A stretch of DNA of 64,000 nt, taken from contig CAWCAK010000008.1 of NCBI GenBank assembly GCA_963793455.1, positions 100,752 to 164,751 of the forward strand, written 5' to 3'. Shown one piece after another: positions 9,327-34,871 of the stretch (positions within the stretch are counted from its first letter, which is position 1; each line of letters starts with the position of its first letter). The position numbers were made by a program, and so were the translations under genes. The DNA is from an uncultured Bacteroidota bacterium. GTDB taxonomy: Bacteria; Bacteroidota; Bacteroidia; Bacteroidales; GCA-2748055. The notes under the pieces are model-generated. The model made no database searches. It worked only from the letters and a program-made list of their open reading frames with translations, and was not told where the DNA came from.

Positions 9327-9872
9327 TTGAAGAACGATGAAGTCCATATGGTCAGGGAGCTCCGGGCCGGCCGGGAGAGTGCCTTCTCCTGGCTCTTCAA
9401 GGAATACTACAGGCCCCTGACTGTATACGCCTTCAAGTATATTTCAGACATGGAATCTGCCAGGGAAATTGTGCAGGACCTGTTCGTGTACCTCTATGAG
9501 AACAGGAAGACAATCCTGATTACAGGCTCCCTGAAATCATACCTGTACCATTCGGTCCGGAACCGCAGTTTGAACCTGGTCAGAAAGGAGCAGACCCGCC
9601 GGAAACACATGGCGCAGTTGCAGGGTGAACGGCATTCTTCTGATGATCCCGAGTCCATGATCCGGGAAACCGAAATGGAGCACCAGGTTTTTCTGATCAT
9701 CTCAGCACTCCCGCCGCAATGCAGGAGGGTCTTTCTGTTAAGCAGGGAAAAAGGATTGTCCAATGGTGAGATCGCCGGGCAACTGGAGATCTCCAAGCGA
9801 ACTGTGGAGAAGCAGATCTCCAATGCTTTGAAGGCAATCCGGTCAGGAATAAGCGACCTGGCAAAACCATAG
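9327..9872 (+). CDS. ECF-type RNA polymerase sigma-70 factor (FecI-like)
   Basis: Region 2 FSWLFKEYYRPLTVYAFKYI...AREIVQDLF. Region 4 LPPQCRRVFLLSREKGLSNGEIAGQLEISKRTVEKQISNALKAI. Belongs with the FecR/TonB-receptor genes further downstream. The last 228 nt lie inside repeat 9645-9907. Confidence 0.9.
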   Translation: MKNDEVHMVRELRAGRESAFSWLFKEYYRPLTVYAFKYISDMESAREIVQDLFVYLYENRKTILITGSLKSYLYHSVRNRSLNLVRKEQTRRKHMAQLQGERHSSDDPESMIRETEMEHQVFLIISALPPQCRRVFLLSREKGLSNGEIAGQLEISKRTVEKQISNALKAIRSGISDLAKP

Positions 9873-9907
9873 CGTCCACAACTTTTTCCAATCCTTCTGT
9901 ACGTGTT
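9645..9907 (+). repeat. Direct repeat copy 1 (sigma gene 3' end plus about 35 nt downstream)
   Basis: Aligns at constant offset 1440 with 11085-11347. I count 20 mismatches in 263 nt (about 92%). Confidence 0.9.
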
Positions 9908-11084
9908 CCTGTTTTCGTCATTCCCTCCGGTGTGAATTCTTCAAGCAAAGATAATCAGCGATGTAGTACTTGGATTTTAACATTTTTGGGTCTCTCGACA
10001 TCTCGCTTTCATGTAATTCCGGACAAAAAGGGACATGAAAGCGGATATTCGCTCGCGTGAAATCTTGTTTTAGATAAATATTATTTTTATATACGCATTA
10101 TTAAACAAATAAATAATTATTAATTATCCTTTGATAGATAATTACTAATATGCAATTGGCTTAATATACCGTATCGAGTATTAATCAATATCTATCTTGA
10201 GATGAAGTGGGAGATCATTAAGAAGTTTTCCGCCAGGAACAAGATTTGTTTTAGCTACAAGGACGTGTTAGCGGAATATCCCGATAAGGATCCCAGCTAT
10301 CTTTCCAAAGCACTTGCCACCATGGTAAGAAAGGGCATGTTAATGAAATTATGCCGGGATGTTTACCACGTTATTCCGCTGAGTGCAGATCCGCGGACCT
10401 ATACTCCTGACAGTAGACTTGTTGCCATGTGCGTGATGAAAGGGAGGGACTATTACATTGCTTACTCCTCGGCGATGGATATCCACGGATTGACAGATCA
10501 ACCAGGCCTGAAAACAATGGTAGTAACTTCCCGGCAGGTGCAACCGTCCATTCACACTATCGCCGGCAAGGAATTTCATTTTATAAGCCATGCCTACTAC
10601 AGGTTTTTCGGGTATGAAGCGACCTGGGTAACCACCCGGGAGCAAGTCATGGTCAGTGACCTGGAAAAGACCATTGTAGATGCCGTGTCAAAACCGCGTT
10701 TATCTGGAGGGATCCCGGGGGTCGGGAAAGCCATATTCCGCTCCAAAGAAAGAACTGATCAACAAAAATTGTTCTACTATTTATCCAGGAACGGGAGTCA
10801 TGTCGCGAAGAAGCGCTATTTGTTCCTCTCCGATTCTCTTGGAATGGGATGGACACCTGACCATGAAAGAATGCTTAAAGAAAGCGGGTCAAGCATTTCC
10901 CTGTTAGATCCCGCGGGTCCAATTCAGGGTGTGAAAAACTCCCGTTTTGGCCTGAAGATCAATTTTGAGGTAGACACCTTGATGGATCGCTAATAATTTT
11001 TATTGGTTGCATAAGGAGTGTTCAGGCTTGAGCGGTCGAGTTGATCACGTGTAGTTCAACAGGGTGTCCCAATGACGAAAACAG
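9908..11084 (+). mobile_element. 1177-bp insertion bounded by 14-bp perfect inverted repeats, carrying an AbiEi-like gene
   Basis: Left terminus CCTGTTTTCGTCAT (9908-9921); right terminus ATGACGAAAACAGG (11072-11085). The right end GGGTGTCCCAATGACGAAAACAGG matches the left end of insertion 32598-33080 in reverse complement. AT-rich interior (10060-10200). Hairpin CGCTTTCATGT...ACATGAAAGCG at 10004-10043. No transposase or integrase. Confidence 0.6.
10202..10993 (+). CDS. AbiEi-family (type IV toxin-antitoxin) antitoxin / COG5340-like transcriptional regulator
   Basis: N-terminal wHTH-like region (FSYKDVLAEY...LSKALATMVRKGMLMKLCRDVYHVIP). The motifs YYIAYSSAMDIHGLTDQP, VVTS, SDLEKTIVDAV and the tail RFGLKINFEVD follow the order I recall for Bacteroides AbiEi proteins. 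No AbiEii gene follows. Confidence 0.7.
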   Translation: MKWEIIKKFSARNKICFSYKDVLAEYPDKDPSYLSKALATMVRKGMLMKLCRDVYHVIPLSADPRTYTPDSRLVAMCVMKGRDYYIAYSSAMDIHGLTDQPGLKTMVVTSRQVQPSIHTIAGKEFHFISHAYYRFFGYEATWVTTREQVMVSDLEKTIVDAVSKPRLSGGIPGVGKAIFRSKERTDQQKLFYYLSRNGSHVAKKRYLFLSDSLGMGWTPDHERMLKESGSSISLLDPAGPIQGVKNSRFGLKINFEVDTLMDR

Positions 11085-11312
11085 GATCCTGAGTCCAGGA
11101 TCCGGGAAACCGAAATGGAACACCAGGTTTTCCTGATCATCTCTGCACTCCCGCCGCAATGCAGGAAGGTCTTTCTGTTGAGCAGGGAAAAAGGATTGTC
11201 CAATGGTGAGATCGCCGGGCAACTGGAGATCTCCAAACGAACCGTGGAAAAGCAGATATCCAATGCTTTAAAGGCAATCCGGTCAGGGATAAGCGAACTG
11301 GCAAAACCATAG
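11085..11312 (+). pseudogene. 3'-terminal fragment of an ECF sigma gene (region 4 only)
   Basis: Encodes DPESRIRETEMEHQVFLIISALPPQCRKVFLLSREKGLSNGEIAGQLEISKRTVEKQISNALKAIRSGISELAKP with no 5' part. Differs from the intact gene in 3 of 75 residues. Confidence 0.9.
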
Positions 11313-11347
11313 CATCTACAACTTTTTCCCGTCCCCCTGTACGTGTT
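11085..11347 (+). repeat. Direct repeat copy 2 (displaced sigma 3' end)
   Basis: See 9645-9907. Contiguous with the fecR-like gene downstream. Confidence 0.9.
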
Positions 11348-30950: not shown

Positions 30951-32354
30951 GTGAGCAGAAGAAAACCAATACCCCTACTTGAAAAGGTAACCATCGAAAG
31001 TATCGGGGCGGAAGGAAAATCCGTTGCCCGGGTGGACAACATGGTGGTCTTCGTGAAGGAGGCTGTTCCCGGCGATGTGGCTGACCTGAGGGTTTTCCGG
31101 AAGAAGGGGCGCTACATGGAGGCCAGGGTGGAGCGTTATCACAGTTATTCTGACCAGCGGACCGAGCCCTTCTGCGACCATTTCGGCATCTGCGGGGGAT
31201 GTAAATGGCAACACCTGCCCTATGACCGGCAGCTGTTCTACAAACAGCAGCAGGTGGAAGATGCCTTCCGGCATATCGCGGGCGTGGAGATCCCTGAAAT
31301 ACTCCCCATCCTGGGTTCTGATCCCGTGACCAGGTACAGGAATAAAATGGAATACACCTTTTCCAACCACCGCTGGCTGCTTGATCATGAAAAAGAACAG
31401 GATATTCCCCCTGAGCACACCAATGCTGTGGGATTGCATGTACCAGGCAGGTTCGATAAGGTCATTGATATTGAAACCTGCCACCTGCAGGAAGAACCCT
31501 CCAACAGGGTCAGGAACTTCCTGAGAACGCTGGCCCTGGAGAAAAAACTCTCCTTTTACGACCACAGGACCAACGAGGGACTGCTCAGGAACCTGATTGT
31601 CCGGACCACCAGCCTCGGGGAGGTGATGGTGATCCTGTCGGTGCAGTTTGACGTTCCCGGGGTGTATGAACTGCTGGATGCTGTTAAAAAGGAGTTCCCG
31701 GACCTGACCAGCCTCATGTATACCATCAATCCGAAGAAGAATGAAACACTCTATGACCAGGAGATCATTACCTGGTCGGGCCGGGACCACATTTTTGAGA
31801 AGCTGGAGGATCTCACCTTCAAGATCGGGCCCAAATCGTTCTTCCAGACCAACTCATACCAGGCCCTTGAACTATACCGGACCACCCGCGGGTTTGCAAG
31901 CCTGGAAGGAAATGAAACGGTATACGACCTTTATACGGGAACAGGAACTATTGCCAATTTCGTTGCCCCCGGGGCAGGGACCGTGGTGGGCATTGAGTCG
32001 GTTCCCGAGTCCATTGAGGATGCCAGGATTAACTCGGAGATCAATTCAATAGGGAACACCCGCTTCTTCGCCGGGGACATGAAAGACCTTTTCGACGACA
32101 CCTTTATCCGGGAGAATGGAAAACCGGATGTGATCATCACCGATCCCCCGAGGGCAGGGATGCATGCAAAGGTAGTGGATCAGATCCTGCGGATCGCCCC
32201 TGAAAGAATTGTTTATGTCTCCTGCAACCCGGCCACCCAGGCACGCGATGTGGAGATGCTGGGCAGTGCCTACCGTGTTATGAAGGTCCAGCCGGTGGAC
32301 ATGTTTCCCCATACACACCACGTGGAGAACGTGGCGTTGTTGCAACTCAGCTGA
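30951..32354 (+). CDS. rlmD: 23S rRNA (uracil-5-)-methyltransferase RlmD/RumA
   Basis: TRAM N-terminus, Fe-S cysteines CDHFGICGGCKWQH, SAM motifs VYDLYTGTGTI, DPPRAGMH, VSCNPATQARD. Confidence 0.9.
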   Translation: MSRRKPIPLLEKVTIESIGAEGKSVARVDNMVVFVKEAVPGDVADLRVFRKKGRYMEARVERYHSYSDQRTEPFCDHFGICGGCKWQHLPYDRQLFYKQQQVEDAFRHIAGVEIPEILPILGSDPVTRYRNKMEYTFSNHRWLLDHEKEQDIPPEHTNAVGLHVPGRFDKVIDIETCHLQEEPSNRVRNFLRTLALEKKLSFYDHRTNEGLLRNLIVRTTSLGEVMVILSVQFDVPGVYELLDAVKKEFPDLTSLMYTINPKKNETLYDQEIITWSGRDHIFEKLEDLTFKIGPKSFFQTNSYQALELYRTTRGFASLEGNETVYDLYTGTGTIANFVAPGAGTVVGIESVPESIEDARINSEINSIGNTRFFAGDMKDLFDDTFIRENGKPDVIITDPPRAGMHAKVVDQILRIAPERIVYVSCNPATQARDVEMLGSAYRVMKVQPVDMFPHTHHVENVALLQLS

Positions 32355-32431: not shown

Positions 32432-32597
32432 GCGACCTGTTTCAGGAATGAATCTGCAGTATGGACTTTACAAACTTTATGACTGTTTGATCCCCGCAGG
32501 GAGCTTTTCACCCTTCCACTCCTTGCTGAAGTCCTTCCAATAGGTGCCTATGGTTCTCTTGATGTCCTTCCGGAGGACCAGGAGTCCGAACAGGTTT
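32432..32597 (-). repeat. Direct repeat copy A (displaced 3' end of the symporter gene plus 45 nt downstream)
   Basis: 166 nt, identical to 33081-33246 except one synonymous position (GGAGGACC versus GGAGTACC). Confidence 0.95.
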
Positions 32598-33080
32598 CCT
32601 GTTTTCGTCATCGGGACACCCTGGTTGGCCTGTTTTTCTTTGCTTACCGCTTAGGATTCCGCCTATCATCCCCTGTTCCAGGCATTTCAGGTCCTGTCCG
32701 GTCTCATCAGGGCTGCCACGCCTGACACATGCTATTGTGCACGCGATGTGGATCTATACGAGGGCTTGAAGGCGAGAGTGACCGGGAGAGCGGAAGGGCA
32801 ATCGGATGGGAGAAGATCCTGAAGATATATGTAATATCCGTTTATTATACCTTAAAGGTAACTTAGTACTTATTACTTATACCTGCAGGTACATGTAATA
32901 TCCAAAATGGCACTTTTAAAGTGCACTAACTGGATATTACTTGTACTTCATACCTGTGGCAATCTTCACAAAGAATCATTCGTTAAAACAGCGGGACACC
33001 GGATCATCCCAGGATCAGGTATCTACATTGAAGATTGTCAGTGGTTTAAGAAATCACAGTGACAAAAGTGATGAAAACAG
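32598..33080 (-). mobile_element. 483-bp ORF-less insertion related to 9908-11084
   Basis: Starts CCTGTTTTCGTCATCGGGACACCCTGG and ends ...GTGATGAAAACAG(G). Both ends resemble the ends of the first insertion. The central AT-rich part has ATGTAATATCC boxes and a nested palindrome. Confidence 0.6.
32889..32946. other. Nested palindrome / potential cruciform or protein-binding site
   Basis: GTACATGTAATATCC (32889-32903) pairs with GGATATTACTTGTAC (32932-46; 15 bp, 1 mismatch). It encloses the perfect palindrome GCACTTTTAAAGTGC (32910-32924). Confidence 0.6.
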
Positions 33081-33246
33081 GCGACCTGTTTCAGGAATGA
33101 ATCTGCAGTATGGACTTTACAAACTTTATGACTGTTTGATCCCCGCAGGGAGCTTTTCACCCTTCCACTCCTTGCTGAAGTCCTTCCAATAGGTGCCTAT
33201 GGTTCTCTTGATGTCCTTCCGGAGTACCAGGAGTCCGAACAGGTTT
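33081..33246 (-). repeat. Direct repeat copy B (3' end of the intact symporter gene)
   Basis: See 32432-32597. Confidence 0.95.
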
Positions 33247-34871
33247 GGAATGGTCATGATGGCGATGGTGATGTAGGAGAGGTTCCAGACTATGGTGGTA
33301 TCGGTAAAGGAGGCAATGAAGAATCCCACCACGTAGATCAGCCTGTAAACAACCACATATTTGGTACCGAACAGGTAGGTCACCGCCCGGCCGCCGTAAT
33401 AGGACCAGGAGATGGCCGTCGAAAAGGCAAACAGCAGCAACCCGATGGAGACAATGTACTGTCCCCAGTCACCCATGATACTGCGCTTAAAGGCTTCTGT
33501 GGTAAGGGCTGCGCTGTGGATCAGTGATTTACCGGTGAAATAGACCTCCCCCTCCCCCGAGTTAAGTTCGGAAAACTGCACCACTCCCCCGCTCACCGGT
33601 ATGGGACCGGTATACTTTTCACCACCCCGGGTCACCACAACGTGTTCTGCGAAAGATTCTGCATGGATGATGGTGATCCCTTCAGTGCTTACCCTGCCGT
33701 CGCTGACCTGCAGGGTACCGTTAAAAACCGCCAGGGATGTATCGTTGATGAAGGACCGGCTCATCAGGGCCCTGTCCTCATTATCTGATTCTGAATACGT
33801 TCCGTCCAATACCACCAGGTCAGCCTGTTCAAACCGGTTTTCGATCTTCTCGTTCCAAACCCCCGAAGAGAGAAGCACCAGTCCGGTGAGTGTACAGATG
33901 ATGATGGTATCGATGAACGGTTCCAGGATGGCTACCATTCCCTCCGATACCGGTTCCTGTGCTTTGGCAGCACTATGCGCAATAGGTGCAGAACCCTGCC
34001 CCGCTTCATTGGAGAAGAGGCCCCGGTTCACCCCTTTGTTAAAGGTAAATGCAAACCCGGCACCCAGGAATCCTCCCACCGCTGCACTTCCTGTAAAGGC
34101 ATCGGTAAAAATGGAACCCAGAGAAGGAAGGATGTTCTGGTAGTTGGTGGCAATCACAATGATGGCTCCCAGGAAATAGATCAGTGCCATCATCGGGACC
34201 AGGGTGGAAGTCACCTTGGCGATCCGCTTGATCCCCCCTATGATCACCAGTCCGAGCAGTATGGCCAGGATTCCCCCTGTAAGGGCATGGTTGATCCCGA
34301 AAGAGCTGAACATGGAGTCGGAGATGCTGTTGATCTGGGGAAGGCTGCCGGTCCCGAAAGAGGAGAGGATGGTGGCAAAGGCAAAGAAAGCACCCAGCAC
34401 TGCACCGGTCTTGATGATCTTCCCCGAACGGGTGGTGATATTCATCCGTTTCTTCATATAGTACATGGGGCCGCCGGAAATAGATCCATCGGGCAGGATA
34501 TCCCTGTACTTGTGTGAAATGGTAACCTCCACAAACTTGGTGCACATTCCGAACAAGGCTGTGACCAGCATCCAGAACAGGGCAGCCGGTCCACCCAGGT
34601 GAATGGCCAGAGCCACCCCGGCAATATTCCCTGTGCCTACCGTTCCGCTGAGGGCGGTGGTCAGCGCCTGGAAGTGCGAGGTATCTCCTACATCTCCAGC
34701 CCGGTCATATTTACCCTTGACAATGCGGATGGCATGCCCGAAATACCTGAACTGGGGCAATCCCAGGTAGAGGGTGAAAAAAATACCGGTTCCAAGCAGG
34801 AAAAAAACAAACCACTGGTGGCCACCCAGGTAATTATTCAGAAACAGCAGGAATTCATTGATCTTTTGCAT
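33126..34871 (-). CDS. Sodium:alanine (amino acid:cation) symporter, AGCS family
   Basis: Start [10 protein letters not shown] (ATG 34871). Motifs [27 protein letters not shown] and [18 protein letters not shown], with many TM helices. The 30 codons upstream in the track ORF run into the IS end and are probably not translated. Confidence 0.85.

Follow-up and report, generated by a model that had tools for sequence, protein, structure and literature searches.

Introduction

In PMC2266710 (2008), the insertion sequences IS1634 (from Mycoplasma mycoides) and IS1549 (from Mycobacterium smegmatis) are both said to make long direct repeats of variable length (8-514 bp), whereas the other members of the IS1634 family mostly make AT-rich duplications of 5-6 bp. 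The same paper gives C-----YT as the end consensus of the family, and the titles of the original papers listed there state that the long repeats arise upon insertion of IS1549 and IS1634. Furuta, Abe and Kobayashi (2010; PMC2853133) described restriction-modification gene units that display an "insertion with long target duplication". Here, we report on a stretch of 64,000 nucleotides from an uncultured Bacteroidales bacterium (GenBank assembly GCA_963793455.1, contig CAWCAK010000008.1, positions 100,752 to 164,751), hereafter the window, in which a 483-bp segment lies between two nearly identical copies of the 3' end of a gene encoding an AGCS (sodium:alanine) symporter. We propose that this segment is, very probably, a non-autonomous element derived from an insertion sequence of the IS1634 family, similar to a miniature inverted-repeat transposable element (MITE), with a target duplication of about 165 bp that left the symporter gene intact.

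The symporter locus

The locus comprises the following features (window coordinates).

32598..33081, plus strand: very probable non-autonomous IS1634-family element, 483/484 bp, recognised by its sequence, its inverted repeat and the absence of any open reading frame (ORF) longer than 51 amino acids (aa)
32598..32624, plus strand: left terminal repeat and subterminal region, CCTGTTTTCGTCATCGGGACACCCTGG, matching the left ends of L011, L125 and L144 (27/30 nt)
33022..33081, plus strand: right end, made of the terminal repeat ...GTGATGAAAACAGG and the subterminal motif TTTAAGAAATCAC, with a 60-nt match to L144 and L125
32432..32597, minus strand: target-site duplication, orphan copy detached from the symporter gene and abutting the left tip (165 nt, 99.4% identity)
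33081..33246, minus strand: target-site duplication, true symporter 3' end abutting the right tip, recognised by the repeat and the position of the gene
33126..34871, minus strand: intact AGCS (sodium:alanine) symporter gene, 581 aa (Pfam PF01235, 408 bits)
30951..32354, plus strand: convergent gene for a TRAM / U5-methyltransferase protein (Pfam PF05958), which originally lay downstream of the symporter gene and adjoins it in L078-L081 as well

(Loci are designated by L and a number.) The segments 32432-32597 and 33081-33246 form a 166-nt direct repeat of 99% identity, whose sole mismatch, G32576 versus T33225, reads on the minus strand as GTC versus GTA, two Val codons differing at codon position 3; a preliminary description of this DNA had already reported this single synonymous difference. 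Because the G at 33081 is common to the insert (32598-33080/33081) and to the repeat, and is assignable to either of them, the sizes are 483 + 166 or 484 + 165 nt. The 165-nt repeat is flush with both tips of the element. The 166-nt repeat comprises 118 nt of symporter coding sequence, the stop codon (33126-33128) and 45 nt of downstream sequence; the last figure agrees with the preliminary description, the coding part being 39 sense codons plus 1 nt instead of the 40 codons counted there. With its stop codon lying inside the duplicated stretch, the symporter gene has remained complete.

The insert begins with CCTGTTTTCGTCATCGGGACACCCTGG and terminates with GTGATGAAAACAGG; its 13-nt terminal inverted repeats agree at 12 of the 13 positions. 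It contains no ORF longer than 51 aa, in line with the earlier view that it has no credible ORF. The junction palindromes noticed at the outset, AACAGG-TTT-CCTGTT (32589-32603) and AAACAGG-CGA-CCTGTTT (33075-33091), are all present, and so are the hexamers CCTGTT (33085-33090) and AACAGG (33238-33243) near the borders of the duplicated stretch.

An empty version of the site occurs in relatives. All four syntenic loci (L078-L081), whose symporter homologs are 577-581 aa long with 89-90% protein identity, carry a single symporter 3' end and lack the insert, the symporter stop codon and the methyltransferase gene being -4 to 44 bp apart. In the window, the symporter-methyltransferase gap is 771 bp, which falls to 122 bp upon removal of 649 bp (the insert and one repeat). 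The absence of the 483 bp from these four relatives rules out conserved intergenic DNA, so that the comparison suggested in the preliminary description speaks for an insertion, the empty site being demonstrated at the level of the genus or species group (89-90% protein identity) and not of a sister strain. One of these relatives, CAZURA01, has related elements at other genomic positions (L022 and L053).

Family assignment of the ends

A scan for the left end, using the 22-mer pattern CCTGTTTTCGTCATNGGGACAC on one genome per species, retrieved 77 stretches, almost all from Bacteroidales, and a metagenome scan with the same pattern retrieved at least 120 stretches. Each left end was paired with the nearest right end of the form ...GAAAACAGG, yielding 67 complete elements of 93 to 3167 bp.

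The assignment of the 483-bp element to the IS1634 family is based on the following lines of evidence. First, the complete elements of the 1651-1653-bp and ~1703-1727-bp classes carry an ORF of 504-530 aa (examples, with proteins of 504-527 aa, are L011, L023, L037 and L125 at 1651-1653 bp, and L029, L073 and L180 at ~1718 bp). The encoded proteins match NCBIfam NF033559, "IS1634 family transposase", with 354-357 bits for a cutoff of 100, as well as Pfam DDE_Tnp_1 (PF01609), and their homologs in the plasmid collection, at most 51% identical, are annotated as IS1634 family transposases. Second, the first 30 nt of the window element are identical at 27 positions to those of three 1651-1652-bp copies (L011, L125 and L144), and its last 60 nt, motif TTTAAGAAATCAC included, agree with the same copies at 33-43 positions, namely 43/60 with L144 (1652 bp, transposase gene truncated to 359 aa) and 39/60 with L125, which has an intact transposase gene. 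Third, the tip CCTGTTTT conforms to the family end consensus given in PMC2266710. The element is also small and non-coding, has terminal inverted repeats and is accompanied by a target duplication, features that it has in common with MITEs. Beyond what the preliminary description had said, the ends are thereby identified as those of the IS1634 family and the long variable repeats as the hallmark that PMC2266710 reports for it.

The sister element at the sigma-factor locus

The preliminary description had assigned the insert to the same element type as that of a second locus of the window, at an extracytoplasmic function (ECF) sigma-factor gene. The left-end 27-mer of the 483-bp element does recur there, on the minus strand at 11059-11085, with 2 mismatches, where none is expected in shuffled sequence. 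This second locus, at which the sigma factor and FecR were recognised by Pfam matches, has the following features.

9908..11085, minus strand: sister element with the same ends, 1178 bp, recognised by the shared left-end 27-mer
9645-9907 and 11085-11347: duplication of the 3' end of the ECF sigma-factor gene flanking the 1178-bp element, 262/263 bp, 92% identity
10202-10993, plus strand: solo AbiEi-type gene, 263 aa (PADLOC PDLC02267, E = 1.3e-61)

The two copies of the sigma-locus repeat differ at 20 positions. Among the 14 differences that are coding, 11 are synonymous and 12 fall at codon position 3, which indicates divergence under purifying selection and not neutral decay. This pattern suggests that one copy may have been swapped by recombination with another lineage, or that the orphan fragment may be under selection. 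As for the claim that the symporter insertion is a recent event, drawn from repeat identities of about 99% against about 92%, the first half stands, one mismatch in 165 nt fitting a recent insertion, while the 92% of the sigma locus is no clean clock, owing to the 11 synonymous differences out of 14. The orphan copy of the sigma repeat retains a 65-aa ORF (11115-11312) that covers sigma region 4.

The AbiEi-type antitoxin or regulator is encoded by the only gene of the sister element, which has no AbiEii toxin partner, and it scores only 27.7 bits against NCBIfam TAA_AbiEi. Its gene occupies the place that the transposase gene has in full-length copies, and AbiEi is also found in L067 and L093. 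The protein has 193 homologs (50-86% identity), mostly on contigs of 1-2 kb, as expected for a repeated mobile unit.

Long flanking repeats across the group

In every complete element, we looked for a repeat running up to the left tip and beginning again at the right tip. Flush direct repeats were found around 15 non-redundant copies, the two loci of the window included, their lengths being 18, 22, 31, 33, 38, 42, 48, 54, 59, ~68-85, 89, 104, 108, 165 and 262 bp. Seven of the 15 are 100% identical, and such perfect repeats surround copies with an intact transposase gene (L011, L029, L125 and L180) as well as L017, in which this gene is truncated to 359 aa. At three further loci (L112, 77 bp; L164, 53 bp; L170, 297 bp), the repeats are displaced by later changes.

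Of 59 copies, 54 have a T next to the left end and 47 an A next to the right end. This flank preference, which is the same at both tips, fits two equivalent strand-transfer events without fixed spacing. No common core was found among the repeat sequences of different loci, and inspection of the 15 lengths revealed no helical periodicity, a check limited by the 1-nt ambiguity of the boundaries.

The preliminary description had further proposed to test whether other copies sit about 40-75 codons before a stop codon. This was not borne out as a general rule, for the duplications of other loci either fall between convergent genes or take in 0-28 codons of a gene end, with a single case inside an ORF. 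The apparent rule is best read as the outcome of survivorship and duplication length.

Side by side with this, we observed that at the symporter locus, the sigma locus and L017, where the duplication covers at least 28 codons, the intact host gene reads into the right end of the element. The host reading direction at these three loci is the direction of the element's own ORF (n = 3, not significant), and host transcription could read through into the gene of the element there.

Proposed mechanism and alternative explanations

We propose the following scenario for the symporter locus. The ~30 nt of the left end and the ~60 nt of the right end that the element has retained would be the places where the transposase binds. 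As neither the element nor the window possesses a transposase gene, a DDE transposase from a full-length copy assumed to lie elsewhere in the genome would have mobilised it in trans. The 3'-OH of each tip would have attacked opposite strands of the target at two points separated by about 165 bp, in a 5'-staggered manner, one attack point being 39 codons inside the symporter gene and the other 45 nt past its stop codon. Repair synthesis of the resulting gaps would then have copied the intervening stretch on both sides, to produce the 165-bp direct repeat. Such an uncoupled, widely staggered strand transfer "inside" a gene would be tolerated because one complete copy of the symporter gene survives.

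Several observations weigh against the reading of the segment as an IS1634-family derivative with a long target duplication. First, a tblastn search with four element-borne proteins found no transposase gene in the window; together with the lack of any ORF above 51 aa in the element, this means that the element can be only a non-autonomous derivative. Second, the 483-bp interior was met once only, blastn against 201 retrieved loci, the rest of the window and the plasmid records giving nothing significant, so that the element stands as a singleton rather than as an established multi-copy MITE. Third, 24 of the 41 copies having at least 300 bp of flank on each side are devoid of any flanking repeat, long or short; the long duplication is frequent, not obligatory.

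The repeat-less copies (L027, L028, L043, L060, L122, L166, L171, L198 and others) retain the T|element|A flanks. They may have arisen by blunt insertion, by oppositely staggered attacks with loss of target DNA, or by recombination between copies. When these copies were examined for hidden duplications of 4-9 bp, with 0-4 nt of slack allowed at the boundaries, no excess over shuffled pairings was seen, nor did palindromic flanks exceed what the T/A preference accounts for.

Two of the other explanations that we considered start from the tip-like sequences at the symporter borders. In one of them, each tip would pick its strand-transfer site independently, and the symporter locus would be a visible case of a tip paired with a pseudo-tip. 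We regard this proposal as unlikely, though it would have consequences. If true, it would provide the first mechanistic model for the IS1634/IS1549 long-repeat puzzle, which is about 25 years old, and it might explain the duplication-less copies as blunt or oppositely staggered attacks.

In a related and somewhat more doubtful version, the transposase would recognise tip-like sequences of the target (CCTGTT ... AACAGG), each real tip being joined 3 bp from an inverted pseudo-tip, so that the spacing of the pseudo-tips would set the length of the duplication. The symporter borders do resemble the terminal 8-mer at the same 3-nt offset, with 7/8 (CCTGTTT) and 6/8 (AACAGG) matches where the chance of at least 6/8 at one border is about 6%, and one junction of the sigma locus forms the palindrome CAGGATCCTG. 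The claim of the preliminary description that the site resembles the element's own ends is therefore correct for the symporter locus, but it does not extend to the group. Over the 15 duplications, the mean best match is 4.13 versus 3.80 for random 16-mers, and P reaches ~0.05 only if the discovery case is included; only 4 of the 30 borders have at least 6/8 matches, two of them from the symporter locus itself, and the remaining 2/28 compare with ~1.7 expected. Most of the 100%-identical duplications (L011, L017, L029, L125, L180 and L192) have no tip-like border sequence, the sole general flank signal being T|element|A. In addition, the relatives have CTC or CTT where the symporter gene of the window reads CTG, so that the AACAGG inside this gene amounts to a synonymous variant. 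The tip-like hexamers at the symporter borders are probably coincidental.

Very improbable in our view is an origin by recombination, in which a circle carrying the 483 bp and a 166-bp host segment would have integrated by a single crossover, either of the Campbell type or through a site-specific recombinase acting on att sites. A single crossover with a cloned host fragment does yield a repeat-insert-repeat layout, and the sigma-locus copies differ mostly at synonymous sites, as if one of them came from another lineage. Against this, the ORF list has no integrase or recombinase in or beside either element of the window; the repeats stop precisely where the 13-nt terminal inverted repeats, which belong to a family of DDE transposons, begin; unrelated loci have unrelated repeat sequences of 15 different lengths with no shared core; seven repeats, around transposase-carrying copies, are 100% identical; and, as the titles listed in PMC2266710 have it, repeats form when IS1549 and IS1634 insert.

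We give still less credit to an assembly artefact, whereby a repeat-induced misjoin would have created a false tandem symporter 3' end. The contig is probably metagenome-assembled, as its closest relatives are, and copies of the element are often located at contig ends, as on 18 contigs of MS495-74 (see below). Nevertheless, the two copies differ by one base and each joins a unique outer sequence, the architecture recurs both at the sigma locus and in 13 or more assemblies made independently by other projects, and it is a published property of the family (PMC2266710).

Finally, the idea that the 483 bp are ordinary, immobile intergenic or regulatory DNA (a small RNA or a promoter region) has a negligible probability, for although the segment has palindromes and folds better than shuffled sequence (z-score of about -4.4), it folds alike on both strands, which points to symmetry at the DNA level (palindromes and paired terminal repeats) and to no strand-specific RNA, it is absent from the four syntenic relatives, has no Rfam match at E ≤ 1, and is devoid of the Bacteroidetes -7 promoter motif TAnnTTTG.

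Interior of the 483-bp element

Two further features were noted within or across the element.

32889..32946, no strand assigned: internal palindrome located in the element's A+T-rich core, the arms GTACATGTAATATCCA and TGGATATTACTTGTAC being 94% complementary around an inner hairpin
32477..32611, minus strand: predicted chimeric ORF of 44 aa (ORF list), whose ATG lies in the left terminal repeat (ATGACGAAAACAGG) and whose frame continues outward into the orphan tail of the symporter gene

The outward-facing ATG (ATGACGAAAACAGG, "MTKT") is present in every left end and is out of frame at the sigma locus. On the other side, the host AAACAGG and the right end of the element together form, on the minus strand (33074-33092), an 8-bp hairpin followed by a T-rich run, so that the insertion itself created a site resembling a terminator, 34 nt beyond the stop codon of the symporter gene. 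A promoter scan of the element gave a single weak sigma-70-like match, no more than in shuffled sequences.

We also considered that the 483-bp element might be a deletion derivative of the 1178-bp AbiEi-carrying sister element. This was rejected, since only the ends of the two align and their interiors are unrelated; nor is the 483-bp interior what a deletion has left of the parent element.

Diversity of elements with the same ends

The elements that share these ends vary widely in content. Minimal elements of 93-104 bp (L015, L027, L024, L043, L060, L160, L164, L173, L032 and L104) consist of little beyond the two ends, and those of 103-104 bp have the right end of the 1718-bp Prevotella-type element. 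The flanks are nearly identical within the pairs L015/L027 and L024/L043, each of which looks like one insertion in two genomes. In other elements, namely L013, L062, L108 and L112 (1318-1348 bp), L054 (1531 bp), L170 (1118 bp) and L192 (2158 bp), the cargo has been swapped; a YhcG/DUF1016 nuclease of the PD-(D/E)XK type (Pfam, 200 and 159 bits) stands in place of the transposase, and the other cargo comprises a 345-aa protein without family match and ORFs of 301 and 285 aa. L074 is an internally deleted copy with the same ends.

In the Bacteroidia bacterium MS495-74 (BNTS01), the left end occurs on 18 contigs, in many cases no more than a few hundred bp from where the retrieved stretch ends (L002, L008, L009, L016, L018, L020, L026, L030, L031, L036, L040, L045, L046, L050, L058, L066, L070 and L076). 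This suggests an expansion of the element in that genome, the assembly of which was possibly fragmented by it.

Significance and comparison with known systems

Two odd loci of the window are accounted for by one known agent. Long duplications of the kind known from IS1634 and IS1549 also occur in a large and diverse group of Bacteroidales (Prevotella and Bacteroides lineages), which includes minimal elements of 100 bp and cargo-carrying derivatives. Such insertions create gene-end duplications of 20-260 bp that can be mistaken for assembly errors or gene fragments, and an element whose duplication takes in the stop codon can insert "inside" a gene that nonetheless stays intact. The many independent insertions gathered here, with their T|element|A preference and their duplication-less class, constitute a data set for the study of the long-duplication mechanism.

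The window element resembles the integrative elements that insert at, and restore, the 3' ends of genes or tRNA genes (attL/attR repeats), in that the host 3' end is duplicated on both sides and the gene remains intact. It differs from them by the absence of an integrase and of a common core, and by repeats of 18-262 bp across the group that abut inverted terminal repeats. With the restriction-modification gene units of Furuta, Abe and Kobayashi (PMC2853133), it shares an insert placed between repeats of tens to hundreds of bp, of which the empty genome has one copy only and which frequently overlap the 3' end of a gene. Those units were chosen for lacking transposases and mobile-element features, whereas the present insert is bounded by the terminal repeats of a DDE family.

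Similarly to bacterial MITEs and to the cargo-carrying derivatives of insertion sequences, the element is short, has no transposase gene, retains the terminal repeats of its parent and is accompanied by a target duplication. Unlike MITEs, it has a unique interior of which one copy was found, and its duplication of 165 bp contrasts with the 2-10 bp of most MITEs.

The closest likeness is to IS1634 and IS1549. The full-length copies with the same ends encode an IS1634-family transposase (NF033559), the terminal repeats of about 13 nt fit the family consensus, and the repeats are long and variable (18-262 bp here versus the 8-514 bp of the published description in PMC2266710, with which the likeness is drawn). 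The differences are that the window element has no transposase gene and measures 483 bp instead of 1.5-2 kb, that its host belongs to the Bacteroidales and not to Mycoplasma or Mycobacterium, and that, unlike most members of the IS1634 family with their AT-rich duplications of 5-6 bp, the Bacteroidales group shows no such short duplications. The insertion in the symporter gene is a further, non-autonomous case of the known long-duplication quirk of the IS1634 family.

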